Part shown: positions 7,686 through 20,512 of the stretch, piece by piece | How the letters are laid out: each line of letters starts with the position of its first letter | Numbering within the stretch: position 1 is the first letter of the stretch | Virus record (IMG/VR): IMGVR_UViG_3300025276_000015 | DNA from: a virus | Strand: one strand, 5' to 3' | Length of the DNA stretch: 33,851 nucleotides | The notes under the pieces: generated by a model | Told to the model about the DNA's origin: nothing | The model's input: the letters and a program-made list of their open reading frames with translations, nothing else | Databases searched by the model: none | Position numbers and translations under genes: made by a program

Positions 7686-8245
7686 TAGAGTCGCCCCATT
7701 GCTTGTAGCTCAGCCAAAGCCGCTTCATCTATGCCCATGCCAGCTAACGCATTAGCTTGCCCACCCATCCGCATCATTTGAGCTTGTTGACCTTGATACT
7801 CAGGAGTTAGGTGCTGCATAACCGGATCTATTGTAGTCGCTTCAGCTAAATACGCAGGATTAGCTACCGCATCAGGCAACTGCTGCTGAGCGAAGGACAT
7901 ATCATAACTGCCTTGATATGGCTGCAATGCAGCGTAATTAACATCGCCGCCTCGTATTGCCTGTTCGTACATTGGCATACCAGATAACAATGCGCCTTGA
8001 GCTGCGACATTGCCGCCAACAAAGGCATTAGCCTGTTGAGGCATAGATTGACCGTAAACATCTAATCCAGCCTGCTGGCCTGCTGTCATTGCAGCGTATT
8101 GGCTTGGCATAGCCTTTCTTATGTCGGCCCTGCCCATAGATTCTTGGCGAGCAAGAAAGTCTCTAGTTAGCTGGTTGGATTTCTCCTGACGCTCGATGCC
8201 TTCATCAGACTCGCCGCCAAATAGCGTTTTAACTAACTTACTCAT
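7685..8245 (-). CDS. Hypothetical virion-block protein (Gln/Ala/Met-rich)
   Basis: 186-aa ORF with overlapping start and stop codons on both sides. No motif recognised. Confidence 0.3.
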   Translation of the reverse strand: MSKLVKTLFGGESDEGIERQEKSNQLTRDFLARQESMGRADIRKAMPSQYAAMTAGQQAGLDVYGQSMPQQANAFVGGNVAAQGALLSGMPMYEQAIRGGDVNYAALQPYQGSYDMSFAQQQLPDAVANPAYLAEATTIDPVMQHLTPEYQGQQAQMMRMGGQANALAGMGIDEAALAELQAMGRL

Positions 8246-8714
8246 ATCTTGCCTCTAGTTCTTCTCTAGTTATTCCAAGAATCCACTGATCGTATATTTC
8301 GCCGTTCTTCTTAAAAGATTTTCTAATCTTGCCTTCAGCCTTCATGCCGCATTGTACGGCAAACATCTTAGCGTTAGGAAAGCAGGTAGCTATCTCGGCG
8401 TTTATCTTCTCGTACTTGGTGTTCTTAGTTATCCAAGTAAAAAACTCTTTAGCGCCGTTGTAGGCTTTCTTGCCTCTAAACTCTTTCAAGATCATTGGAT
8501 GGATCTCTATGGTTATGCTGTTTCGCATCTCAGCCATCCAAATACCGCAAACTTCATCATCTTCTGTATGTAAGAACCAACCACTGCTCATGTCTGGATA
8601 CCACTCAGCTCGTGAGAAGTTGTCCTCGCTGATTTCATCAAATACTTCAGATCCAGTAACAAATGATCTTATGAAGTCAGCATCTACAGTTCTAGTTATC
8701 ACACAAGAATCCAA
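8238..8714 (-). CDS. GNAT-family (RimJ/RimL-like) N-acetyltransferase-like protein
   Basis: 158 aa. ILKEFRGKKAYNGAKEFFTWI resembles the acetyl-CoA motif A region. KINAEIATCFPNAKMFAVQCGMKAEGKIRKSFKKNGEIYDQWILGITREE matches the usual GNAT C-terminal pattern (a.v...N..s......GF..EG..r.....G...D....gi.r.e). Confidence 0.55.
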   Translation of the reverse strand: MDSCVITRTVDADFIRSFVTGSEVFDEISEDNFSRAEWYPDMSSGWFLHTEDDEVCGIWMAEMRNSITIEIHPMILKEFRGKKAYNGAKEFFTWITKNTKYEKINAEIATCFPNAKMFAVQCGMKAEGKIRKSFKKNGEIYDQWILGITREELEARYE

Positions 8715-10368: not shown

Positions 10369-11213
10369 TAAGCAACTCCAAACAAGCAATCCGTCACTGT
10401 TATGTTGTTAGTTCCAGAACCGTTAGCAACAAAGATTTCTAGGTAGTCAGACGCTGTAACTGGCACGTTAAAGAACACGCCCACATTACCAGCCGAGCCA
10501 GAAGTAACCGTCCTGCTAATCTTTGCATTGGTTATCAATGATCCGTTCTTGGCAAGATGAACAGTAAGGTCTTGATTTGTTCCAACAACATCCAAGGTGA
10601 CCGAGGCGCTTACTCTAACGGTCGCTGCCGTGCCGCCTGTATAAGTCAGCTTTCCTGTGTTATCCGCAGTAAAATTAGACACAGTGCCAACAACAAACGT
10701 GCCTGCAACTTTAACCGCAACGTCTTGCGTGGCGATAGCAGTGGCAGTTGAATTGCCGTGCATACTAACCTGTGCGTTAGTCTCATCAGCAATTGATGTT
10801 ATCTGAATGCCTGAGCTGTTTACTGCCGCAATACTAATTCCACTTCCCGCAACAATACTAGCTATCGTAGGCGAGGCTGCGGTAGTGTTCAAAAGTATAG
10901 GAAGACCTTCAGCGTTAGCCGTGAAGTTGTGGCTTATCTTCGCTCCATTTGATGCAGTGACAGAAGTTACAATGCCAGAACCGTTTTCTAGGTTTCTGAT
11001 CTTATTAACCGTTCCATCGATTTCAAGTACAGGAGTTCCTGTGCCAGATCCAGTGGTAACAATACTACCTGTAACCCCAAGACCAGCCACAAAACTAGAA
11101 TAAGAGATTCGGTAGTTAGTGTTGTTGACGAAGTAATCCATGAACGAGTTAGCAAGGACAGTATCCTGCGCTACAAAGTCCGACTTCTTGCGACCATCTG
11201 CTCTTTTAACCAT
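10368..11213 (-). CDS. Beta-rich virion protein inserted between adaptor and hub genes (possible fibre/decoration protein with a jelly-roll-like C-terminus)
   Basis: 281-aa ORF with Thr/Ser/Gly/Val-rich repeats (GSGIVTSVTASNGAKISHNF / GSGISIAAVNSSGIQITS). The C-terminal pattern ..LTVHLAKNGSLITNAKISRTV....VGVFFNVPVTASDYLEIFVANGSG resembles C1q/TNF-like knobs. This is pattern impression only. Confidence 0.3.
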   Translation of the reverse strand: MVKRADGRKKSDFVAQDTVLANSFMDYFVNNTNYRISYSSFVAGLGVTGSIVTTGSGTGTPVLEIDGTVNKIRNLENGSGIVTSVTASNGAKISHNFTANAEGLPILLNTTAASPTIASIVAGSGISIAAVNSSGIQITSIADETNAQVSMHGNSTATAIATQDVAVKVAGTFVVGTVSNFTADNTGKLTYTGGTAATVRVSASVTLDVVGTNQDLTVHLAKNGSLITNAKISRTVTSGSAGNVGVFFNVPVTASDYLEIFVANGSGTNNITVTDCLFGVA

Positions 11214-11688
11214 TAGTGTTTACCTCTAAGGCTATAGCGCCAGTGGTCTCTGCAAGGATTGACGATTCTTGATCTGGATAAAAATTACTACTAATGCCGA
11301 AGTTATTATCTTCATTGCCAGAGCCAATAGGCAGTGTGCAAGGAAATCTAGTCTTGCCCATGCTTTGACCGACCAGCCGCATAGTGTTGAAACCATCACG
11401 AGCGGCCTTTGCTAAACCTGCCGAAACGATTCCGTTGTAATCTGGTGCGACCTCAATAGCCATGTTAGCTATCAAGCCTCGCAGTGCGCCTGTAGGGATG
11501 GTGACCTCATCACCTAGATCAGATACTGTTGTATAGCCTAGCTGAATGCCTGAAGCATCTAGCTCTGCCATGTAATTATTCATTGAAAATATAAAATCTT
11601 GGTACTCGTCAGGCTGTAGTGGAGCTTCACTAGCCTGTACCAATATCCGTTGAAGTGAGGACGTTGCGACCTGAGCGACAGTAGCCAT
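11206..11688 (-). CDS. Head-to-tail adaptor, P22 gp4-like
   Basis: 160 aa (P22 gp4 is 166 aa). The C-terminal half, IEVAPDYNGIVSAGLAKAARDGFNTMRL.......RFPCTLPIGSGNEDNNFGISSNFYPDQ, parallels gp4 (..[21 protein letters not shown].......[27 protein letters not shown]). It lies after the coat gene and before the gp10-like gene. Confidence 0.7.
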   Translation of the reverse strand: MATVAQVATSSLQRILVQASEAPLQPDEYQDFIFSMNNYMAELDASGIQLGYTTVSDLGDEVTIPTGALRGLIANMAIEVAPDYNGIVSAGLAKAARDGFNTMRLVGQSMGKTRFPCTLPIGSGNEDNNFGISSNFYPDQESSILAETTGAIALEVNTNG

Positions 11689-11858
11689 TATTCGTATGTA
11701 CTCTTTGAAGGTTTTTTGGGCAGCTCTTTTTTATGAAATACCCGAACACTGTTTTTAGTGTGAGTTAATCCAGTGTGAACTGTGCCGTCAGCCATTGTAT
11801 GAGTTTTCCCATTATACGGCCTTCCAGACAATTTAAAATGCTTTGCGTTTTTAGCCAT
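11688..11858 (-). CDS. Small basic protein a (56 aa), C-terminus ..KSTYE
   Basis: Hand translation: MAKNAKHFKLSGRPYNGKTHTMADGTVHTGLTHTKNSVRVFHKKELPKKPSKSTYE*. The stop overlaps the adaptor ATG (TAATG). The ORF is below the 60-aa track cutoff. Confidence 0.55.
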   Translation of the reverse strand: MAKNAKHFKLSGRPYNGKTHTMADGTVHTGLTHTKNSVRVFHKKELPKKPSKSTYE

Positions 11859-11866
11859 AAAAACTT

Positions 11867-11992
11867 CTACTCGTATGTAGCTCCGCTCTTAACCGTTTTT
11901 GCAGGCTTCTTTTTAATTTTCTTCTTTGCCTTATTAGCAGACATCATGCCTGCTTTGGTATATGGGAACTTTTGACCGTTTACGTTTGGCAT
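11867..11992 (-). CDS. Small basic protein b (41 aa), C-terminus ..SGATYE
   Basis: Hand translation: MPNVNGQKFPYTKAGMMSANKAKKKIKKKPAKTVKSGATYE*. GAGGTGAT lies 3 nt upstream of the ATG. Confidence 0.55.
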   Translation of the reverse strand: MPNVNGQKFPYTKAGMMSANKAKKKIKKKPAKTVKSGATYE

Positions 11993-12000
11993 AAATCACC

Positions 12001-12171
12001 TCACTCAAATGTGGCTTTTTTGGCAGTCTTCGCTGAGTTCTTAAAGGCTTTTGCTGTTGGAGCGCCTTTAGATCCTACCTTACGCATCCTTTCTGGAGTT
12101 TTTCCAGCAGCTTTCTGAGCTTTGATACGTTTTTTCTTTTTGTGGATATTTGCGTAGAGACCGTTATTCAT
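12001..12171 (-). CDS. Small basic protein c (56 aa), C-terminus ..KKATFE
   Basis: Hand translation: MNNGLYANIHKKKKRIKAQKAAGKTPERMRKVGSKGAPTAKAFKNSAKTAKKATFE*. The ATG overlaps the end of ORF d (ATGAATAA). Confidence 0.55.
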   Translation of the reverse strand: MNNGLYANIHKKKKRIKAQKAAGKTPERMRKVGSKGAPTAKAFKNSAKTAKKATFE

Positions 12172-12424
12172 AAGTAGCACTCTTTGCGCCTTTACACTTC
12201 CAGCGCTTACGGCTCAAGTTGTTAGGCGTGTTGGGATCGTTCTGTTGTCTCTTAGATAACTGTTTCTTTATACCTAAAGACCTCGCGCAATACGCATCAC
12301 CTTTGCTAGTGCCTGCGCGTACACGAGAACCACCGTCACTGGCCTTCCCAGCCTGCCCATAGGAGACCTTCTTGCCAGTGGCAGTGACTTTTACTTTCGC
12401 TTTACCTTTTCTCGGAGTAGCCAT
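12164..12424 (-). CDS. Small basic protein d (86 aa), C-terminus ..KSATYE
   Basis: Track ORF, Lys/Arg/Gly-rich, containing GDAYCARS...DPNTPNNLSRKRWKC. It follows the coat-gene terminator directly and has no obvious SD. Confidence 0.5.
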   Translation of the reverse strand: MATPRKGKAKVKVTATGKKVSYGQAGKASDGGSRVRAGTSKGDAYCARSLGIKKQLSKRQQNDPNTPNNLSRKRWKCKGAKSATYE

Positions 12425-12427
12425 AAT

Positions 12428-12451
12428 AAAAAACTAGGAGCCGAAGCTCCC
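12428..12451 (-). terminator. Intrinsic terminator/attenuator just downstream of the major capsid gene
   Basis: Minus strand reads GGGAGC-UUCG-GCUCCU (6-bp stem with one G-U pair and a UUCG tetraloop), followed by AG-UUUUUU-AUU and then the ATG of ORF d. Confidence 0.6.
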
Positions 12452-12465
12452 AGAATACTACAAGG

Positions 12466-13728
12466 TTACTTACCGTAGCCTTGACCCGCAAACAGCGGAT
12501 TAAAGCAGGCATAAGCTGGCAGAAGGTCAAAACGAATCTTCTGCGTATTGGCATCACCGTCTGCGTACTTAGATACACGGATGCTCATACCATCGCTAGT
12601 AGTTGCAATAGTGTCCGTAGAGTACAGCTTAGGCAGCTTAACAGTTCCAAGACCAAACGCTTGCTTGGTAAAGAACATATTAGGCTGGAAGACAGTAGAT
12701 GCTGCACCAAGGATAGTCACAACAGCGCCAGTAGCAGGAGCTGCGTCAACGTTGTTGTACTGACCAGCGGCCTCAAAGATAGCAGCACCTGAAACAACGA
12801 CAGTTGCAGCGTTGCCAGCGATAGTGACATCCGCTATTACAGTGCCTGTCCACGGAACAGTAGCGCCTGCGGCATCAAGGATAAGCTCACGAGTAGCTAC
12901 GTTAAGACGATTAACGCCTGCAATAGTTACCTGATCGCCAGCTTTAATAGTACCAGTACCCAGATTAGCAAGAACCAAAGTCTGCTGCATAGTGTCCTTC
13001 GCCGCAACGTAAGTAGCGTTAGGCGCACCATTCAGCGTACCAGCACGGTCAGTAGTAGTACCTGAAGTGTAGCTGCTGAGAGCATTAGAAGTCAGCGCTA
13101 TCATGCCGCCAAAGTTCTGGCTGATCTGTGCTTTCTCCCAAGCTGTACGAACAAGGCCGTCAGACGCATTCAAACCGTTCTGAGCTGAAGACAGCGCAGT
13201 AGTTGTGAATGGGTTCATCAGGTAGTATTTCTCGTCTGACATTGGAACGCCGACAGAATCCATCGTGGCTCCAGCACCAGCTACATCTGACCAAGCATCA
13301 ACAACAGTTCCACGATCACCATAGGTCAACGCTGCGTTTTTACGCATGAAAGCGCCAAGGTCTAACTCAAGGTCAGTTACGATGCGGCGAGCCATAGGCT
13401 CAAGGATTTGATCAAGTTGGTCTAGCTCAAGAGCCTCTTCCACGTTGCCCCACTCAGTGGCGGCTGTGAAGTAGTTTTGAACAGTACCAGTTGCTTTACC
13501 AGCAATGATGTCTGACTTACCAGAACCGCTGATGTCACCACCAGAAGTACGGATTGTGTTGTAGTCATGAGGACGCTTGAAGTCGACATTAGAGCCGCTT
13601 GAAGGATTGAACTTTCCTGCCAGCAACTGAGTGTTGACAGTCTTTGTTACTACACGAGAAGCCTCAAAGGCATCTAGGAATACACGAGCGACTTTCCGTG
13701 TGACGTTACTATTGAGATTATTAGCCAT
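12466..13728 (-). CDS. Major capsid protein (HK97 fold; P22-coat-like by size and position)
   Basis: 420-aa ORF directly after the scaffold gene. AAGGTGAT SD lies 7 nt upstream. A terminator follows. Composition is typical of coat proteins. Confidence 0.75.
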   Translation of the reverse strand: MANNLNSNVTRKVARVFLDAFEASRVVTKTVNTQLLAGKFNPSSGSNVDFKRPHDYNTIRTSGGDISGSGKSDIIAGKATGTVQNYFTAATEWGNVEEALELDQLDQILEPMARRIVTDLELDLGAFMRKNAALTYGDRGTVVDAWSDVAGAGATMDSVGVPMSDEKYYLMNPFTTTALSSAQNGLNASDGLVRTAWEKAQISQNFGGMIALTSNALSSYTSGTTTDRAGTLNGAPNATYVAAKDTMQQTLVLANLGTGTIKAGDQVTIAGVNRLNVATRELILDAAGATVPWTGTVIADVTIAGNAATVVVSGAAIFEAAGQYNNVDAAPATGAVVTILGAASTVFQPNMFFTKQAFGLGTVKLPKLYSTDTIATTSDGMSIRVSKYADGDANTQKIRFDLLPAYACFNPLFAGQGYGK

Positions 13729-13744
13729 GATTGGATCACCTTAT

Positions 13745-14548
13745 TCATTCAAAAGTTGCTCCTTTAGGGCCACCAGCCTTGGGACTTACCCCAGCGCCTC
13801 TTGGCGTGTCTAGTGGATCAGGAGCGGCATTAACATTAGGTTTAAGTTTTCTAGCCTTTGGCATAATGGTCTGATCTAAATACAGCAACGCTTGATTTGC
13901 AGGCATATTCGCCAGCTTATCTAACTCTAAGAGATTCTGACCTAAGTACAGAGTTCCAAGACTTCCATCATCTAAATCAATCAAATGACTAGACAGCATT
14001 GGGTTTATCCCAAACTGACCTATCTTGTTTGCTGCGCTTTGCAGATCTTCAGTCTTTACACCGAGCTTCTTAGAGCGTTCTGCGTAGGTTGCGATCTTCG
14101 CATTCTGCTCACTAATTGCCGTTGCTTGCTGCTGACGCTGTAATTCTAGCTGCTGACCTTGCATGGCCTGCTGCCTAGCCTCAAACTCTGCTCGCTTAGC
14201 AATCGCCTGATCGCGCTGTCTGAGCTGCTCCTGTATCTCTCTATCAGAAAGACTATAGAAATCAGGCACATTCGGCACTTCTGGCGGCTGTTCTTTGGGA
14301 ATCCTAGCTTCTAGCTCTTCTAGGCGCTTGCGGTAATCCTCGGCCTGACGCTCTGCTTCTCGCGCCTTCCAAGTCTTCTCGCTTATAGCCTTATCAAAAA
14401 CCTTCTGCTGTTCTTCACTAAAAACAGGTCTAGTGGATTGCTCTTGGTCTTCACCAGTATCCGTTGATGAGGCGGAATCAGTTTCCTGATCTACAGTTTC
14501 TACGTCTTCAAGCTCATAAGCCTCATCGACCATATCTTCTGGTTGCAT
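13745..14548 (-). CDS. Scaffolding protein
   Basis: 267 aa. Acidic N-terminus, long Q/E/R/A-rich coiled-coil region, basic C-terminus ..GVSPKAGGPKGATFE. Lies between the portal region and the coat gene, as in P22 gp8. Confidence 0.65.
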   Translation of the reverse strand: MQPEDMVDEAYELEDVETVDQETDSASSTDTGEDQEQSTRPVFSEEQQKVFDKAISEKTWKAREAERQAEDYRKRLEELEARIPKEQPPEVPNVPDFYSLSDREIQEQLRQRDQAIAKRAEFEARQQAMQGQQLELQRQQQATAISEQNAKIATYAERSKKLGVKTEDLQSAANKIGQFGINPMLSSHLIDLDDGSLGTLYLGQNLLELDKLANMPANQALLYLDQTIMPKARKLKPNVNAAPDPLDTPRGAGVSPKAGGPKGATFE

Positions 14549-14659: not shown

Positions 14660-16354
14660 TTACTTGAGATTTGGATTATTCCACAAATCATCAGTATTTA
14701 CGTCTGCTCCTTCAGCATCTCGATATAAAGGAAAGTCTCTGCTTGAGCGAGTATCGTCTCTAAATCTTTGAGTAGTTCTAGCTAGATATTCATCATTCAT
14801 AAGCATATATAACTGATTCGGGTTGTATTCCTCACTCAATCTTCTATATTTATCTTCTATTTCTTTGCTAATCCGAGCGGCATCATTAGTTCTGTTCAGC
14901 TCGTCTACGTTTTTTGCTGTAGCCGCAGCTATTTCCTCATCACTTGCATTAACTAAGTCACGGAATTGTGCCGAGGAACTCTTGTTTTTAATATATTGTT
15001 CTACAGCATAATCTCTAGCATTGCTTGCCCATTCAGAGCTTTCTCTTTGAAACATTTTAATATCACCATCAAAATCTTCTAGCTCTGGTTTAGGAAGTCT
15101 TGCTTCAATGCCTCTTGAGTTAAGCTGAAAAAATTCACTTGCGTCTATTTCGTCAGCGCTTGCAGTATTAGCAAACCTTTCAAAATCTCTCATCTCATTG
15201 ATTCTGTTTATATTATCTAAATTGCTTTTTGCGTAAAGATTGAAAGTAGCGTCTTCACGGTAAGGTATTTGCTCCGTAATTCTTGCCGTATCCAAACTCG
15301 TCCTTGCTCCTTCTGGACTTCCTCCTCTTGACCTTCCTTCTCTGTTTGAAATTGCGTGTTGAACTTCGTGTATTAAACTTGAGTCAGCTCCAAGCATATT
15401 TTCCATATCTGGGTTATATTTAGCGTATGAAGCAGCGTCTTCAGGAAGCATAGCTGGCGCTCCCATATTCAGCATAATTTTATCATTTGCTCTATCGTAT
15501 GATGCTCTCCCAGCATATTGACTTTCTGAGTTTTTCAAAGCTACATTCATATTTCTTAAATCTGGGTAAGCTGCGTAAACATTTGGATCATCATATATAT
15601 CTTCGAGCTTTACCATTTTAGGCTCAGCTCTAGCTTGTAAATTGAAATACAGCTCTTCTGGCTCTACCTCTCCAACAAAACTTTTTGCAGCGTCATAGTC
15701 GAAACGACTTTCATTAGTTGGTAACCAGTACATATACTCGCCATCAAGGTTCTTTTGGAATCCTGTGGCCTGCTTAATCTCTTCAGGAGAAGCACCTTGT
15801 CTTTCCATTTGATTCGCTTTGAACAGCGCTTCTTGGTCAGCAGTCCTTGAAGACGGCCCAGCAAATATGTCAGCTCTAGGAGAATTAGGAGCAGCCATGC
15901 CGCCTACCAAGCCGCCGACTATCTCGCCTCCTGTGCCGCCATACTCACGGCCTATCTGAGCGCCAGCCTCGCCGCCGAAGTAGGCGCTAAGCTCAGATAA
16001 AGTTCTACCAAAGAAGTTATTAAGAGCAGACACGCTTTTTCCAGCAACTGTTGCTGTGCCAGCGACAACGGCGGGAGCTACAGCTCCAGCTACATAGCCT
16101 ATTGAATTCGGATCGGACTCTACGTTAAGCGCAGACTTGGCTCGCTGACCTAGCATCACAGGACGGTCGTTACGGCCTGTAATCATGTTGGAGATGCCAG
16201 CTACTCCTTGAGCGCCAAGGTCAGCAAGTCCTAGCGTTCCGTCAACAACTGCTGAGTTAAACTGAGCAATATTGTTAAGCGCAGACGTAGCTTGCCTTCT
16301 GCGATTTAACCTAAATTGTTGCTCCTCTCTTGCTATTTCTGAATCAGATGCCAT
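14660..16354 (-). CDS. HExxH zincin-like metallopeptidase-domain protein with an N-terminal Gly-zipper region (putative portal-associated/packaged minor head protein)
   Basis: 564 aa. HEVQH is at 15356..15370, in the context SSLIHEVQHAISNREGRSRGG. Hydrophobic Gly/Ala segments include IGYVAGAVAPAVVAGTATVAG and GGEIVGGLVGGMAAP. The start overlaps the portal stop by 11 nt. Confidence 0.5.
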   Translation of the reverse strand: MASDSEIAREEQQFRLNRRRQATSALNNIAQFNSAVVDGTLGLADLGAQGVAGISNMITGRNDRPVMLGQRAKSALNVESDPNSIGYVAGAVAPAVVAGTATVAGKSVSALNNFFGRTLSELSAYFGGEAGAQIGREYGGTGGEIVGGLVGGMAAPNSPRADIFAGPSSRTADQEALFKANQMERQGASPEEIKQATGFQKNLDGEYMYWLPTNESRFDYDAAKSFVGEVEPEELYFNLQARAEPKMVKLEDIYDDPNVYAAYPDLRNMNVALKNSESQYAGRASYDRANDKIMLNMGAPAMLPEDAASYAKYNPDMENMLGADSSLIHEVQHAISNREGRSRGGSPEGARTSLDTARITEQIPYREDATFNLYAKSNLDNINRINEMRDFERFANTASADEIDASEFFQLNSRGIEARLPKPELEDFDGDIKMFQRESSEWASNARDYAVEQYIKNKSSSAQFRDLVNASDEEIAAATAKNVDELNRTNDAARISKEIEDKYRRLSEEYNPNQLYMLMNDEYLARTTQRFRDDTRSSRDFPLYRDAEGADVNTDDLWNNPNLK

Positions 16355-18584
16355 TCTGCATTCTCGCTATTTCGGAGTCAGACATATATCTCATTGCTCT
16401 GCGCTGAGCCTCAGCTCGCTGCCTCTCTGCGTCAGCGCGTTGCCTATCCATCATGTCAGCCATCTTCTCTTGGTTGTCTAGCTGATCACCTACAGACTTA
16501 ACCTGAGACTGATTGACCGTGGCATTAGCCTGCTGAGCTTTGATCTCAGTATCCATGCGCTTAGTCTCAGCGTTGAAGATGTCTATCTGGTTGTCAGCCT
16601 GATCGCCTTGCATCTGCGTCTGGAGCTTCTGCGCTTCCAGTTGTAGTTTCATCTGCTCGTTCTGGAGCTTGGCCTGCTCTATCTGCGCTCGCATCATCTC
16701 GGCTTCAGCTTTCATCTGCTCAGCCATTGCCAGAACCATGTTCGGATCTTGCTGTGGCTCGCCTTGCTGCTGCTGTGCTGCCGCTAGTTCTTCCTGAGTC
16801 ATCTGCTCTTGCGGTATCAGGCCAGCAGTTATCATCTGTGCGCGTTTTCGGTCAGAGATTTGCTGAGCCGAGGCCGTAGCCACGTTGTCCAGCAACACAT
16901 CGCCAGCGATCTGTAGGATCGTAGGATCAACCTTGGCAATCTCAATGATTGTCTCAATCGTCTCTTGTTGGCGGTTCTTGAAGCTCGCACCAGCCTTGAC
17001 TTGCACATCGTAGTTGCCGACTGACAGATCATTAACAGTCACCACATCGCCTGTCTGCTGGTCTATGACCTTCTGGTTGATGTCTGCAACGTCATAGGTG
17101 TTGTCTTCCTTCAGCAGCCTTACAGTACGCGCTGAGTCATAGATCTCAGGGATGGCAGATACCAAGACACGACCAGTGGCACGAATGCCAAACTCCAAGG
17201 CTTTGAAGTATTTGATCGTAGAGTTATCGCCTTTGTTCTGTAGCGCGTTAATCGCAACGCCAGACTGATTCTGTGGATTGTCGCCCATGTTGCTGCTGAA
17301 CATACCGGAGGCATAGGTAATCATACCGCGCATAGACTCAGACATTGTGCGTAGCGCTGGGTTGATCTGTGCGCCGCCTTGCTGTTGAGGCACTTGCGGG
17401 AACTCTGGGTCTACGTTGAAGAACTGCACCGGATCGTGGTTAGTGTTCAGCGTCTGCAATGAATCCTCGTGGCCTGCCGCCTGCCCCATTGTCATCCAAT
17501 ACTTAGACCGTGGCGCAAGGCTAGTCTCTGCAACCTCACGGCTGACTGAGTAGTTCAGCACTCTCTGCGAGTCCATGAGCTTCTCAACGAGTCCCCAGAA
17601 GATCGTCTTGTTCTCAAAGATCTTGTAGTTGGCAAATATAGGTATCACCGGAATCATGTTGAAGACTGTCTCTTTCTTTTCCTCCAGCCAATCGCTAGCG
17701 TCAAATAACCGTGAACATACCTCTTTCTTGACCCGCTTACGCCTACGGACTTCTGTCACTCCAATAGCTTTCAGCTCATCAGCTATCTTCTTAAAGTCAT
17801 CATTGAACTCATGAACCTGCCCATTAGACATCATGACCAGCTCGCGCTCTTCCTCTTCGCAGTACAGCAGCTCACCAATCACCACGACCTCAGCCTTGTC
17901 GTAGTAAGCCTCGCCATCACGGCCTTCATCTACTGACTCGCCAGAGCCTTCAGGAAAGCGTCTGTCATATTCTTGCCTACCAACAGCATGAAGGACAAAG
18001 CAATAGCGTGAGTCTGACTTGTCTTGCTTCTCTGCCGCAGGATCAAACCATACTCGGTCAAGCGCATTGCCAATAGGCTCAATGAACAGGTCTTGGTCAA
18101 AGCTATCCTGACTCACATACTTATGCACAACGCGCCAAGCGCCGAAGCCAGTGGTCACCATAGTACGAGCTGCGTGGTTGTAGACCTCACTAGCATCAGA
18201 CATAGACTCAATGTTGCGAACAATGCCTGAGTAGGTGTTGGCTATATCCTTGGTGCTGTTGCCGCCAGCAGGAGAGACAGAGACATCAAAGGAGGCTTGG
18301 TCAATCTCCGAGCAAACCTGATCAATGATCGGATTAACCATATCAAAGCTGTAGCGCGGAGACTTGGACTCTTTCGCATTGCTGTACCAGTAGGGTTCCC
18401 ATTGACCATCACGCTTATCCACAAACAACGCAGCCTCGCGCCCATTGTTTCGCAGGTCTTGGTCAGCCTCCTGAGAAGCAGACAGAAGGTTAGACACATA
18501 CTCGTGATCTTCATAGCTTGAAGAGTCATAGGTGTCCTCGCCATACTCTTTCTTGGAGTCTTTCTCGTATTCGTACTTATCCAT
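16344..18584 (-). CDS. Portal protein (P22-like, with a long C-terminal coiled-coil barrel)
   Basis: 746 aa, directly after TerL with an 8-nt overlap. The last roughly 150 aa are Q/E/A/M-rich coiled coil, as in the 725-aa P22 portal. Confidence 0.8.
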   Translation of the reverse strand: MDKYEYEKDSKKEYGEDTYDSSSYEDHEYVSNLLSASQEADQDLRNNGREAALFVDKRDGQWEPYWYSNAKESKSPRYSFDMVNPIIDQVCSEIDQASFDVSVSPAGGNSTKDIANTYSGIVRNIESMSDASEVYNHAARTMVTTGFGAWRVVHKYVSQDSFDQDLFIEPIGNALDRVWFDPAAEKQDKSDSRYCFVLHAVGRQEYDRRFPEGSGESVDEGRDGEAYYDKAEVVVIGELLYCEEEERELVMMSNGQVHEFNDDFKKIADELKAIGVTEVRRRKRVKKEVCSRLFDASDWLEEKKETVFNMIPVIPIFANYKIFENKTIFWGLVEKLMDSQRVLNYSVSREVAETSLAPRSKYWMTMGQAAGHEDSLQTLNTNHDPVQFFNVDPEFPQVPQQQGGAQINPALRTMSESMRGMITYASGMFSSNMGDNPQNQSGVAINALQNKGDNSTIKYFKALEFGIRATGRVLVSAIPEIYDSARTVRLLKEDNTYDVADINQKVIDQQTGDVVTVNDLSVGNYDVQVKAGASFKNRQQETIETIIEIAKVDPTILQIAGDVLLDNVATASAQQISDRKRAQMITAGLIPQEQMTQEELAAAQQQQGEPQQDPNMVLAMAEQMKAEAEMMRAQIEQAKLQNEQMKLQLEAQKLQTQMQGDQADNQIDIFNAETKRMDTEIKAQQANATVNQSQVKSVGDQLDNQEKMADMMDRQRADAERQRAEAQRRAMRYMSDSEIARMQNGI

Positions 18585-20004
18585 GCTTCCATCCTGAGAA
18601 GTTTAGAACAACCTTCTGTTGGTTTATTACCTTGGGACTATGCAACGACATCATAAGCGCATCACCCATGTTTGGACTCGGCAACCGATAGGGAGGCTTA
18701 GCCATCTCTATCTTGCTCAGTATCTGTATCTTACCAGCGTTGTTGCGTTTAAGTGGTATGCGGCAGACCTCAGCGCGTAGCTGGTCTAGCACTGCAATGT
18801 CCGAGGATAGGCTGATCATATCCTCTGGGTTCACATACTCGCCTTTGATCACGGCTCTGTGCGTGGCCTCAAACCTATCTCTTAACCGCCACCAGTATTG
18901 CGCTCGCTTGTTCTTGAAGGTCTCTCGGTTAGTCTTGTCTCGCTGGATGCCGCCGCTGGTATACGGCAGCTCTGGGTCTTCAGCAGCCTCTGAGCCTTTG
19001 AACATACTGTACTTGAGTTTGTTCTTGCCTGACAGCGCCTGATCTACTTGCCGCTTGAGAGAGACACCTAGACCGTCTGCGTCCCAGATAAAGTGGTCAG
19101 CGTTAGCCTTCAGCGCCTTGTCCAGCGCCCAATCCATACCTTCCGCTGCATCACCTGTTACCATCTCACACACATCTAAGATCACGTTGCCGTGCCTGAG
19201 CGTGAAGCCTTTGCTGTCACCGCCTTCATCAGATGGATCGTGAGAAGCAATGATGGCGCCTTCTGGCTTCCAGCCTAGCTTCACATGAGCGTCTACCGCC
19301 GACAAGAACCACTCCACTGGAATGATTGAGTCCTCATTCTCGTCATACGTCTCGCCTTCCCAGACATGAGAGTACAAAGCCGCTGACATATGCGCTTGGT
19401 CATAGGCTCGCTCTTGCTCTAGCACCTCTGGGAATGCTGGGTTGTCATTATGGTTCATCCAGACAATCGTGTGATGCTCGTCTTCGTAGACACCATCACG
19501 CCGCAGCTCTTTCTCAAACGGCTTAACGAATCGTAGGAAAAATGGATCAGCCGCTGACCTTGGGTTAGCTGCCATCCAGATCTCTGAGCCTGCCGTCCTG
19601 AGCGTAGGAGTAAGCGCCTTGAGGCTGGCCTCTGATATTGTCTGGCTCTCGTCCACGAATACACGGTTGAAGCCGTGGTAAGACTTAACACTCTCTGGCG
19701 ATCTTGCTAAGCCGATATACTTGAATGCAGTTTCGCCGTTGTAGCGGATCTCATTGCGCTGGATCTCAAAGCCTTGCAGGTCAAGCCGTTCTATCTCAGC
19801 ACACAGCAGCGTATGAATGGAGTCATCTATTGATGCTTGGAACTCACGAGCGCAGAGAGTCTTGATTCCCTGCATCTGTGCTGCCTGTAGACACAGATCA
19901 CCCATTGTCATGCTCTTACCTGAGCCTCGACCGCCGATACAGATCTTGTAGCGCTTAGGCTGCAAGAACGGAAGCATCTTCTTGGGTATCTGCATCTTGG
20001 GCAT
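18577..20004 (-). CDS. terL: Terminase large subunit
   Basis: 475 aa. Walker A motif in KICIGGRGSGKSMTMGD. Lies immediately upstream of the portal gene. Confidence 0.85.
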   Translation of the reverse strand: MPKMQIPKKMLPFLQPKRYKICIGGRGSGKSMTMGDLCLQAAQMQGIKTLCAREFQASIDDSIHTLLCAEIERLDLQGFEIQRNEIRYNGETAFKYIGLARSPESVKSYHGFNRVFVDESQTISEASLKALTPTLRTAGSEIWMAANPRSAADPFFLRFVKPFEKELRRDGVYEDEHHTIVWMNHNDNPAFPEVLEQERAYDQAHMSAALYSHVWEGETYDENEDSIIPVEWFLSAVDAHVKLGWKPEGAIIASHDPSDEGGDSKGFTLRHGNVILDVCEMVTGDAAEGMDWALDKALKANADHFIWDADGLGVSLKRQVDQALSGKNKLKYSMFKGSEAAEDPELPYTSGGIQRDKTNRETFKNKRAQYWWRLRDRFEATHRAVIKGEYVNPEDMISLSSDIAVLDQLRAEVCRIPLKRNNAGKIQILSKIEMAKPPYRLPSPNMGDALMMSLHSPKVINQQKVVLNFSGWKHG

Positions 20005-20147
20005 TATTCGTACTTCACAGTATTCTTTTTCTTCTTAGCTTTAGCCATTGCGATGGCGATAGCCTGATTCTGCGGTTTGCCTGATGCCATCTCTGTCTTG
20101 ATGTTCTTGGAGATAGTCTTCTTACTCTTGCCTTTTTCTAGTGGCAT
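20004..20147 (-). CDS. Small Lys-rich protein (47 aa) between terS and terL
   Basis: Hand translation: [47 protein letters not shown]. There are TAATG overlaps at both ends. The ORF is below the track cutoff. Confidence 0.5.
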
Positions 20148-20512
20148 TATTCCATCACCTCTATTGTCCAGTGAGTGTCAACATCCATCTGAATAGGCTT
20201 GCCATCAGCGCCTGTATGCTCTGTCCTGCTCTTCTCTGTCCAGCCAAGCGTCTGACTCAGGTAGAGCTTCAGGCTTGGAAAGTCCTTATCAAGAATAGCT
20301 TTGTCGCGCAGTGTCTTGGCGGCTAGTACACCATCCTTGTATCTGGCTCTAGTATAAGCGGTAAAAACTCGCTCATCTCTTTTGAAGATGTCTCGTAAGG
20401 TCTTGGAAGTTATAGAGAAATATTCAGCAAGCTGATCTTGAGTCATTACCGGAGCAAGCTCTTTGATCTCTTCTATCTCTTCATCTGTAAACACTCGTTC
20501 AGGTCTTGCCAT
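20147..20512 (-). CDS. terS: Terminase small subunit (HTH type)
   Basis: 121 aa. N-terminal HTH-like region ([18 protein letters not shown]). Contains [14 protein letters not shown], a pattern common in small terminases. Lies upstream of terL. Confidence 0.5.

Follow-up and report, generated by a model that had tools for sequence, protein, structure and literature searches.

Small polycationic proteins of marine P22/Sf6-like phages share the C-terminus of the scaffolding protein, a candidate procapsid-docking peptide

Why should several tiny, unrelated and strongly basic proteins of one phage end in the same residues as its scaffolding protein? The question is raised by IMG/VR virus record IMGVR_UViG_3300025276_000015, a stretch of 33,851 nucleotides (the window) that is almost certainly the near-complete ~34-kb genome of an uncultured marine P22/Sf6-like podovirus. 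A sequence-only reading of this DNA had described four small open reading frames (ORFs), here called d, c, b and a, between the coat and the head-tail adaptor genes, and had suggested that the ending they have in common with the scaffold is a docking signal for the capsid interior. On re-reading the ORFs we found the lengths, C-termini and placement of all four as described, and the codons and stops quoted for the five copies of the ending, the scaffold's included, are correct. The four are not the whole set: a fifth polycation, e, absent from the earlier account, lies in the gap between the small and large terminase genes (TerS and TerL), which forms a second slot for tagged genes. With confidence slightly above even, we take the terminal peptide to be a scaffold-mimicking procapsid-docking peptide that would recruit small proteins into the capsid interior. 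The window features that carry it are the following.

13745-14548, minus strand: scaffold, 267 amino acids (aa), ending ..GPKGATFE; matches phrog_8865 (head scaffolding) at 3e-19
13748-13849, minus strand: C-terminal tail of the scaffold, residues 234-267, a Pro/Gly/Lys-rich tether with the tag GATFE at 13748-13762
12164-12424, minus strand: d, 86 aa, net charge +18, ending ..KGAKSATYE, with ATYE at 12167-12178
12001-12171, minus strand: c, 56 aa from its ATG (59 aa from an upstream GTG), net charge +15, ending ..KKATFE, with ATFE at 12004-12015; matches phrog_16028 at 4e-17
11867-11992, minus strand: b, 41 aa, net charge +10, ending ..SGATYE, with ATYE at 11870-11881
11688-11858, minus strand: a, 56 aa, His/Lys-rich, net charge +9, ending ..SKSTYE, with STYE at 11691-11702
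20004-20147, minus strand: e, 47 aa, between TerS and TerL, net charge +10, DUF6496-like, with the tag VKYE at 20007-20018
8238-8714, minus strand: DUF2824/gp14-like protein, 158 aa, ending ..EELEARYE; matches Pfam DUF2824 at 8e-11 and phrog_651 at 2.5e-24; a doubtful member

The shared ending is beyond chance. Of the window's 277 ORFs with 30 aa or more, seven end in [FY]E, namely the scaffold, d, c, b, a, e and the DUF2824 protein, and all seven lie on the coding strand. In a six-frame count, [FY]E stands before 13 of 3616 stops; composition predicts 0.4% per gene (background about 0.2-0.5%), which gives a probability of ~2e-7 for six or more among 60 genes. The conserved core is aromatic-Glu-COOH, mostly after [GSK]-A-x, and the Thr position is taken by T, K, R, M, I, V or N. 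We read the tag consensus as [G/S/K]-A-x-[F/Y]-E-COOH: of the K-x(0-2)-[AS]-T-[YF]-E proposed earlier, the aromatic-Glu end stands, but the Thr is variable and the core is narrower than claimed. All five small proteins have a pI >10, the tag being their sole acidic patch, and the net charge of the scaffold is -16. Pfam and NCBIfam searches with the five small proteins returned nothing significant, a Protein Data Bank (PDB) sequence search with d gave no match, and tblastn against phage records found no match for e and one weak match for a. The AlphaFold2 (AF2) model of d has a predicted local distance difference test score (pLDDT) of 54. The direct Pfam scan of e was also without a match, and several of its untagged homologues, 74-77% identical, carry a precomputed PF20106 (DUF6496) assignment.

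A repeated ending could serve the nucleic acid and not the protein, as an element of translational coupling, a terminator or a product of gene conversion at 3' ends, or it could be coincidence. Some junctions do embed signals: the ATG of c is embedded in d's TATGAATAA, the Shine-Dalgarno sequence of b in c's GAGTGAGGTGA, and the stops of a and e each overlap the start of the next gene, adaptor and TerL respectively, as TAATG. A strong Shine-Dalgarno sequence, GAGGTGATGG, lies upstream of e. Across distinct DNA versions, though, the aromatic codon is TTT, TTC, TAT or TAC, Glu is GAA or GAG, all three stops are used, and the junctions to the next gene vary from overlaps, including one of 4 nt, to spacers of 8-17 nt. 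The use of all synonymous codons and all stops, together with the differing junctions, places the constraint on the peptide rather than the nucleic acid, which agrees with the earlier statement that conservation is at the peptide level and involves no DNA repeat. The motif is also always in frame at the exact C-terminus and is kept across genomes that are 44-96% divergent. We rejected the RNA or translational-coupling reading on the codon evidence, and a nucleic-acid feature or chance is extremely improbable.

The sequence-only reading had suggested looking in related phages for scaffolds and small ORFs with a common C-terminus, and the ending is indeed kept in both across ~150 loci. From the 428 relatives that a coat-based scan of IMG/VR returned, we retained the best 80 (coat 85-96% identical), and a search by portal contributed 70 further loci with 10-kb flanks. 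Families were assigned by BLASTP over the resulting 150 loci (L-numbers below). In these loci [FY]E is kept by 111 of 112 scaffolds, 89 of 90 copies of d, 74 of 79 of c, 37 of 38 of b, 5 of 5 of a and 37 of 38 of e; three of the five untagged c ORFs are 5' halves of a split gene. It is found in none of the coat (0/107), portal (0/98), TerL (0/59), TerS (0/36) and gp10-like (0/56) proteins, nor in the 281-aa (0/65) and 83-aa (0/53) proteins encoded downstream of the adaptor, and the adaptor itself gave one stray [FY]E ORF among 85 homologue matches. Between the coat and adaptor genes a genome has 0 to 5 small ORFs. The residues before the aromatic vary (ATYE, AKYE, ARYE, AMYE, PTFE, NKYE, NTYE, VRYE), b alone ending in ATYE, AMYE, NKYE or NTYE within the clade. 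In L022-L026 d is reduced to a 46-aa deletion variant that lacks the conserved C-terminal half of the protein but retains the end ..AGTKKGATYE. Where the scaffold is in the 44-50% identical range, e ends in ..GKFE and c in ..PRFE (L156), or e in ..HTYE and d in ..GAKFE (L157); in L171 and L180 the scaffold, d, c and an a-like protein are all tagged.

Two natural disruptions stand beside this pattern. The c gene is split by a ~370-nt insertion (L035:3610-4203, also L021 and L037) that carries a 105-aa ORF of the Cro/C1 helix-turn-helix (HTH) type (Pfam HTH_3, 5e-8) and a second, short ORF; ..NATFE is retained at the end of the 3' remnant of c, and the inserted cassette sits within the late structural operon. 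A 58-aa variant of e (P0259) reads through the tag (..NTVKYEYKQETLCNMMI), which reflects either a genuine loss of the tag's terminal position or a mistake in sequencing or assembly.

The small proteins are not orphans, as had been thought: they belong to large families of small basic proteins that many marine podoviruses encode, untagged, in their head modules. The d family has >1700 database clusters. Among the 120 closest homologues of d (70-93% identical, with near invariant cores), 23 end in [FY]E and 97 in K/R tails such as ..KCSGAKSKK; the 120 closest homologues of e likewise comprise 23 tagged proteins and 97 with K-rich tails, some of them annotated with PF20106. The a family numbers 101 representative clusters in 1.84 billion proteins, and just one of its 94 small members is tagged, most of the 94 having K/R tails. 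The c family is common in T7-like pelagiphages, roseophages and cyanopodoviruses, with ends such as ..AKTAKKK, ..TAKKRKA and ..TAKKR, and all five untagged copies from HTVC100P, KBS-P-1A, CRP-5, HTVC168P and L178 have K/R tails. For b, no homologue was found outside the clade.

Wherever the context of an untagged copy was read, the phage was not P22-like. These hosts include phages with an SU10-type portal (L160-L162, L178), T7-like phages (L163, KBS-P-1A, HTVC168P) and Zobellviridae (468E53-1, CRP-5), as well as CRP-7 and HTVC100P; Vibrio phage 1.036.O also has an untagged copy, in a local context without P22-type genes. Most untagged copies adjoin portal, scaffold, capsid or terminase genes, often in arrays of the same families, and in L178 e, a d-like gene and c stand side by side. 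As a falsification check we read two untagged e homologues on ~35-kb contigs, and both lie in phages without P22-type genes, one of them with an SU10-type portal; a tagged d on a 34-kb contig proved to come from a P22-like genome in which the scaffold, d, c and an a-like protein are all tagged. The association of the d tag with genome type is strong (Fisher, 6e-13). Common termini between scaffold and small proteins were also sought in SU10-like and T7-like phages, and none was found. Absence of the tag in phages that are not P22-like, together with its presence in P22-like ones, ties it to a scaffold ending in G-A-x-[FY]-E. The tag thus belongs neither to a genomic slot nor to the families as such, only to those members that live in genomes with a like-ended scaffold, where it has been acquired repeatedly.

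The wider distribution of these families is of interest in itself. Untagged arrays of tiny basic proteins (e, d, c, a and others) occur at L178:5503-6034, L160:9883-10555, L163:10001-11319 and L177:2385-2886, and such a mini-polycation cassette is widespread, and unannotated, across unrelated lineages of marine podoviruses, SU10-like and T7-like, within their packaging and head modules. A literature search on small basic virion proteins of marine podoviruses found nothing relevant. The d-like and c-like domains also form C-terminal modules of phage proteins of 372-928 aa (PHROGs 3477, 10346, 28131, 11180, 22379) and are joined together in phrog_11180, a family of 141 aa. The small basic units thus behave as portable modules. 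The His-rich motif of a, H-x-M-x-DG-x-x-H-x-G-x-x-H, recurs as tandem repeats in the giant proteins P0379 (6326 aa, with 31 matched stretches), P0429, P0435 and P0457. It may be a metal-binding module, and a itself has a weak NCBIfam match to the HypB nickel-binding prefix (E 0.02).

In distant members of the clade the coat-adaptor slot also holds a 'VKPSG..KRRGRPPK' family, which includes P22 orf69, and a 95-aa protein, all untagged. This ..KPSG/KPGG..GW.. family, never tagged, is the ancestral occupant of the slot in P22-like phages; its members are at L164:6135-6344 (P22 orf69), L155:11674-11853, L156:11240-11413, L158:7415-7561, L159:7791-7928 and L165:2915-3100 (Sf6 gp6). P22 orf69, Sf6 gp6 and the L155 and L156 proteins end in an AT-hook-like K-R-[GR]-R-P-P-K. 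The member from phage H6/1, gp11, is annotated as a 'putative acetyltransferase' and looks misannotated.

The tag had been taken for a feature of polycations in the coat-adaptor slot, and here the wider survey disagrees. An unbiased scan of the clade loci, covering the 2469 coding-strand ORFs left without a family assignment, found [FY]E ends only in remnants of split c and in one new family of 109-110 aa (f109; MAEPEF..NNPxxYPYIxNxDGSxSxHxMAAETDEDGNW..), which ends in AGYE, ADFE or ATFE. With ~14% K+R it is not polycationic; Pfam and PHROG gave no match for it. It is absent from the window and directly follows e, before TerL, in five genomes (L093:1922-2254, L106:8221-8550, L092, L116, L143). 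A 607-aa protein with an LPD23 domain (L067/L068:1029-2852; LPD23 at 1.5e-15 in L068) ends in ..RRIMGYE. Proteins with LPD domains are classed as 'polyvalent proteins', for which packaging and injection have been predicted (PMC5512222), and an LPD domain among the virion genes is found both in this protein and in its window homologue at 14660-16354. These two cases fit a general address label better than a role specific to polycations.

The slot between portal and scaffold in which the LPD23 proteins lie resembles a cargo or effector slot: it holds an LPD23 protein of 564 aa in the window and of 607 aa in L067/L068, an ART-PolyVal protein of 294 aa in L156, and proteins of 218 and 483 aa in L157, with the tag only in the L067/L068 version.

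The DUF2824/gp14-like protein was considered as a seventh member and downgraded. It ends in [AT]RYE in 24 of 27 near relatives, but elsewhere the end changes: YE is internal in L155, where the protein runs past ..SYE (..LSYEQNWQGDIRRH), L180 has ..ARYD, and YE is absent from H6/1 (..DELGK) and from P22 gp14 (..LLNNGR). The protein has weak GNAT similarity (Pfam Acetyltransf_4, 3e-4; phrog_1249) and a 'head morphogenesis' label; a GNAT-like factor of this sort in the company of Lys-rich proteins is curious.

Among scaffold homologues down to 44% identity, 119 of 120 end in G-A-x-[FY]-E, and the tail motif LKPKV-x3-P[DE]P-x3-P..GP-x-GA-x-[FY]E is better conserved than the scaffold body. Further away, the ends are ..CPGAKIE in Sf6, ..CPGAMIE in APSE-1, ..CPGATIE in phiSG1, ..SKGAKFE in the cultured Pseudoalteromonas phage H6/1, whose scaffold is 37% identical to that of the window, and ..KGVKYE in L173, a more distant contig from a metagenome-assembled genome (MAG); the exceptions are Shewanella ZP9 (..AVIK) and Vibrio 234P9 (..GTVFI). 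These like ends make G-A-x-hydrophobic-Glu-COOH an ancestral feature, an old one of most Sf6-type scaffolds. H6/1 has the scaffold tag and no tagged cargo.

The gene order (the scaffold lies between the portal-adjacent gene and the coat gene) and its homology make this a P22/Sf6-type scaffold. Homology to P22 rests on the PHROG match, on a PDB match of the Sf6 scaffold to the P22 scaffold at 2e-9, which stops at P22 residue 276, before the hook, and on a MAFFT alignment. In that alignment the LKP..AP-P linker matches the linker of P22 gp8, after which P22 has its HTH (~36 residues) and the clade has 14 Pro/Gly/Lys residues. The AF2 model, built on a 38-sequence alignment, has helices to residue 233 and coil of pLDDT <50 for residues 234-267. 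Since the coil begins after residue 233, the tag is predicted to be a short linear motif that terminates a flexible tether. Neither the alignment nor the model shows a P22-type C-terminal HTH with basic hook residues in the window scaffold, and Pfam gave no scaffold-domain match. The comparison with P22-like scaffold C-termini made earlier therefore holds as to place, the tag lying where P22 has its coat-binding domain, but not as to structure, the terminus being of the Sf6 type, ..PGA-x-IE, without the P22-type HTH.

The distribution of this terminus also bears on degradation. The tag could serve as a signal for degradation, processing or quality control, read by a host or phage protease or adaptor that recognises [FY]E-COOH and would turn over the scaffold together with potentially toxic polycations. 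Degrons typically lie at a C-terminus with its carboxylate free; unbound polycations might be toxic, and they have no acidic patch other than the tag. But Pfam and PHROG scans of the window proteins found no protease family among the structural-gene matches, P22-type scaffolds are recycled and not degraded, and C-degrons known from bacteria (ssrA ..LAA, Tsp substrates) have non-polar residues at their ends. Limitation of the tag to one clade with a tagged scaffold points to a phage-encoded partner and not to a host protease, and Sf6-type enteric scaffolds keep the terminus across very different hosts. We regard degradation or processing as very unlikely.

The window holds a complete tailed-phage morphogenesis module, with the following further features.

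20147-20512, minus strand: small terminase TerS
18577-20004, minus strand: large terminase TerL
16344-18584, minus strand: portal; matches phrog_156 at 8e-120
14660-16354, minus strand: LPD23-domain protein, 564 aa, untagged, in the portal-scaffold slot; Pfam LPD23 at 1e-9
12466-13728, minus strand: major coat protein, 420 aa, Sf6-type; Pfam P22_CoatProtein at 2e-72; its N-arm is encoded at 13639-13728
12434-12453, minus strand: terminator-like hairpin (CTGGGAGCTTCGGCTCCTAG followed by a T-run), directly after the coat stop and before d
11206-11688, minus strand: gp4-like head-tail adaptor, untagged, at the downstream edge of the array; Pfam P22_Tail-4 at 3e-8, phrog_637

Downstream of the adaptor come the 281-aa protein, a gp10-like protein, the 83-aa protein, the DUF2824/gp14-like protein, ejection-type proteins and a tail fibre. 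The hairpin sits where Sf6 has its annotated 't coat' terminator and P22 a stem-loop; its position between coat and d implies that expression of d-c-b-a depends on read-through and stays below that of the coat. The coat is 47% identical to those of Sf6, HK620, APSE and phiSG1 and matches PDB 5L35/7SP4 at 1e-112, while the P22 coat itself gave no match at 1e-10, which places it in the Sf6 subtype; P22/Sf6-type coats we take to have the HK97 fold. At the DNA level, comparison with cultured phages gave short patches only and no close isolate. A scan of genome contigs for prophage hosts gave only MAG-binned ones, in three Gammaproteobacteria bins and one Dehalococcoidia bin.

In P22 the C-terminal hook of the scaffold grips the coat N-arm by electrostatic contacts between scaffold Arg293/Lys296 and coat Asp14/Glu15/Glu18 (PMC12005531), and scaffold C-termini also bind the major capsid protein in 80alpha and herpesviruses (PMC12005531, PMC5644958). 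The N-arm of the clade coat, N-x-T-R-K-V-A-R-V-F-L, is basic: over 14 distinct clade sequences R11, R15, R25 and K29 never vary and K12 hardly does. Sf6-type coats carry K15/K16 in the N-arm region, where P22 is acidic. This suggests a contact of reversed polarity, with an acidic terminus (Glu, free carboxylate and aromatic ring) set against a basic coat N-arm.

The coat is not the only basic candidate. The terminus might instead bind the basic wing motif of the portal, which would recruit the small proteins to the portal vertex, or a pocket in the scaffold body, so that they ride on the scaffold core much as T4 internal proteins do. The portal has RRRKR at residues 280-284, at the position of the KRRR wing motif of Sf6; that motif is conserved in P22 and Sf6, and the wing domain is described as one site of scaffold interaction (PMC13386823). 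P22 scaffold hooks contact the portal too (PMC12005531), and e lies in the packaging module beside the portal and terminase genes. A portal with only ~12 copies would nevertheless offer few places for polycations that neutralise DNA, and no self-binding pocket is evident in the AF2 model of the scaffold, which carries low information. A receptor other than the coat is, in our view, unlikely.

We therefore return to docking on the coat, for which peptide-level conservation, strict co-occurrence with a like-ended scaffold and the place of the P22 coat-binding domain together make the docking signal the best explanation. In this mechanism the scaffold would hold the procapsid interior by the motif at the end of its ~34-residue flexible tail, its likeliest partner being the basic coat N-arm in a charge-inverted version of the P22 contact. 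Several unrelated small proteins have swapped an ancestral Lys/Arg tail for the tag, so mimicking the scaffold terminus, and would be recruited to the same site and concentrated in the procapsid or capsid. The high positive charge of the polycations (+9 to +18) makes DNA binding the obvious activity inside a capsid: they would bind the incoming DNA, neutralise or condense it or tether it to the shell, and would possibly be co-ejected.

The sequence-only reading knew of no described system of this kind, yet comparable ones exist. The closest is the 80alpha scaffold and the SaPI1 protein CpmB, which have a common C-terminal RIIK helix-and-hook that binds the same capsid-protein site (PMC5644958). 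There, too, a small protein that is not the scaffold carries the scaffold's C-terminal motif, as do d, c, b, a and e here. CpmB is a satellite-encoded, dimeric alternative scaffold that changes capsid size, with a basic and hydrophobic RIIK after a helix, whereas the present case has up to five or more putative mimics, phage-encoded and mostly disordered polycations, with aromatic-Glu-COOH on a coil. Neither RIIK after a helix nor satellite encoding is found here; the tagged genes are part of the late operon of the phage itself.

CpmB acts as a competitor (PMC5644958), and the tagged mini-proteins might do likewise as competitors or release factors, displacing or tuning the scaffold at its coat site, without being stored in the virion; they might time its exit as DNA enters, or modulate assembly in the manner of CpmB. 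The evidence for a common binding site serves this explanation as well as it serves docking, the small proteins would presumably pass through capsid pores, and the number and identity of tagged genes vary (0-5), as expected of accessory modulators. It leaves unexplained, however, why the tagged proteins are overwhelmingly polycationic and come from families that are untagged in other head modules; it gives no reason for a tag on a 607-aa LPD23 protein, and five competitors in one genome seem redundant. We think a role as competitors improbable.

Cargo loading through a docking peptide also has precedents. Cargo fused to the C-terminal coat-binding region of the P22 scaffold is encapsidated (PMC9962691), and these gp8-based nanoreactors, made from virus-like particles, come from the same virus group with the same gene order as the window. 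The window clade differs in having no HTH after the linker, an acidic and aromatic terminus, a basic N-arm and natural 'fusions' of only ~2-5 residues. In T4, the capsid targeting sequence is a short common peptide that sends unrelated and often basic proteins (IPI-III, Alt) into the prohead, where they stay with the DNA and are ejected with it; it is N-terminal, binds the scaffolding core and is removed by the prohead protease. The tag here is C-terminal and equals the scaffold's own terminus, and the Pfam and PHROG scans gave no prohead protease gene among the structural genes, and so it is not of the T4 type.

Encapsulins, which PMC11190991 mentions, offer a further parallel. The likeness to them is that six to eight unrelated families bear a short peptide at the C-terminus and that the coat has the HK97 fold; the difference lies in the full tailed-phage module of the window and in a motif unlike that of encapsulin cargo. 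Encapsulin cargo peptides are short C-terminal sequences on diverse cargo that bind the interior of an HK97-fold shell, with no scaffold, portal or DNA, and their consensus is rich in Gly, Ser, Leu and Ile and ends hydrophobic or basic. As for the cargo, adenovirus protein V bridges the genome to the inner capsid (PMC10081844). Adenovirus VII, mu and V resemble the tagged polycations in being small, very basic and genome-condensing or bridging; they have no sequence relationship to them and no scaffold-derived tag. To our knowledge, tailed phages are generally thought to neutralise the charge of their DNA with small cations and polyamines, not with proteins.

Several observations weigh against procapsid docking. 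The motif, its peptide-level conservation, its restriction to genomes with a like-ended scaffold, its repeated acquisition and its place on a disordered scaffold tail are observed; the receptor, the encapsidation and the activity of the cargo are what we infer. A PDB search found no structure of an Sf6-type scaffold-coat contact. The positional argument from P22 depends on a low-confidence alignment, the window scaffold and P22 gp8 being 19% identical with no significant BLASTP match. Other lineages carry these small-protein families in their head modules with no common tag, and there the proteins evidently function without such a signal. The cargo is dispensable, as some genomes have no tagged small ORFs (L059, L060, L079, L080) and c is disrupted in L021, L035 and L037. 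The known ejection-protein homologues in the window are untagged. The tag residue is mostly F in the scaffold and mostly Y in the cargo, with no residue-level co-variation between them, and none of the phages with tagged mini-proteins is cultured.

A broader proposal can be made more tentatively, and we put it at rather below even: that the tag is a natural, portable address label for the capsid interior of tailed phages. The coat-binding element of the clade scaffold would have been reduced to aromatic-Glu-COOH on a tether, with a polarity the reverse of that in P22; 2-5 residues would suffice for loading, and the load would consist of variable polycationic 'DNA-binding arms' with occasional LPD23 effectors. 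Tailed phages would then have their own counterpart of encapsulin cargo loading and a way to neutralise genome charge with proteins. Scaffold-terminus mimicry and capsid-targeting peptides are each known, and what is new is the system of several phage-encoded proteins with a minimal C-terminal tag.

If the docking explanation is true, this would be the first natural case in a tailed phage of several of its own proteins being sent to the capsid interior by copying the scaffold terminus, a principle so far known only from the satellite protein CpmB and from engineered P22 nanoreactors. It would supply a minimal encapsidation tag of 2-5 residues for Sf6/P22-type virus-like particles. It would also open to direct test how Sf6-type scaffolds grip the coat without the P22 hook residues, and whether tailed phages neutralise their packaged DNA with proteins and not just with small cations. 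The clade of uncultured marine P22/Sf6-like phages is widespread and globally abundant, and its tagged proteins would give a first functional context to the abundant families of tiny basic ORFs in marine podovirus head modules, which usually go unannotated or uncalled.

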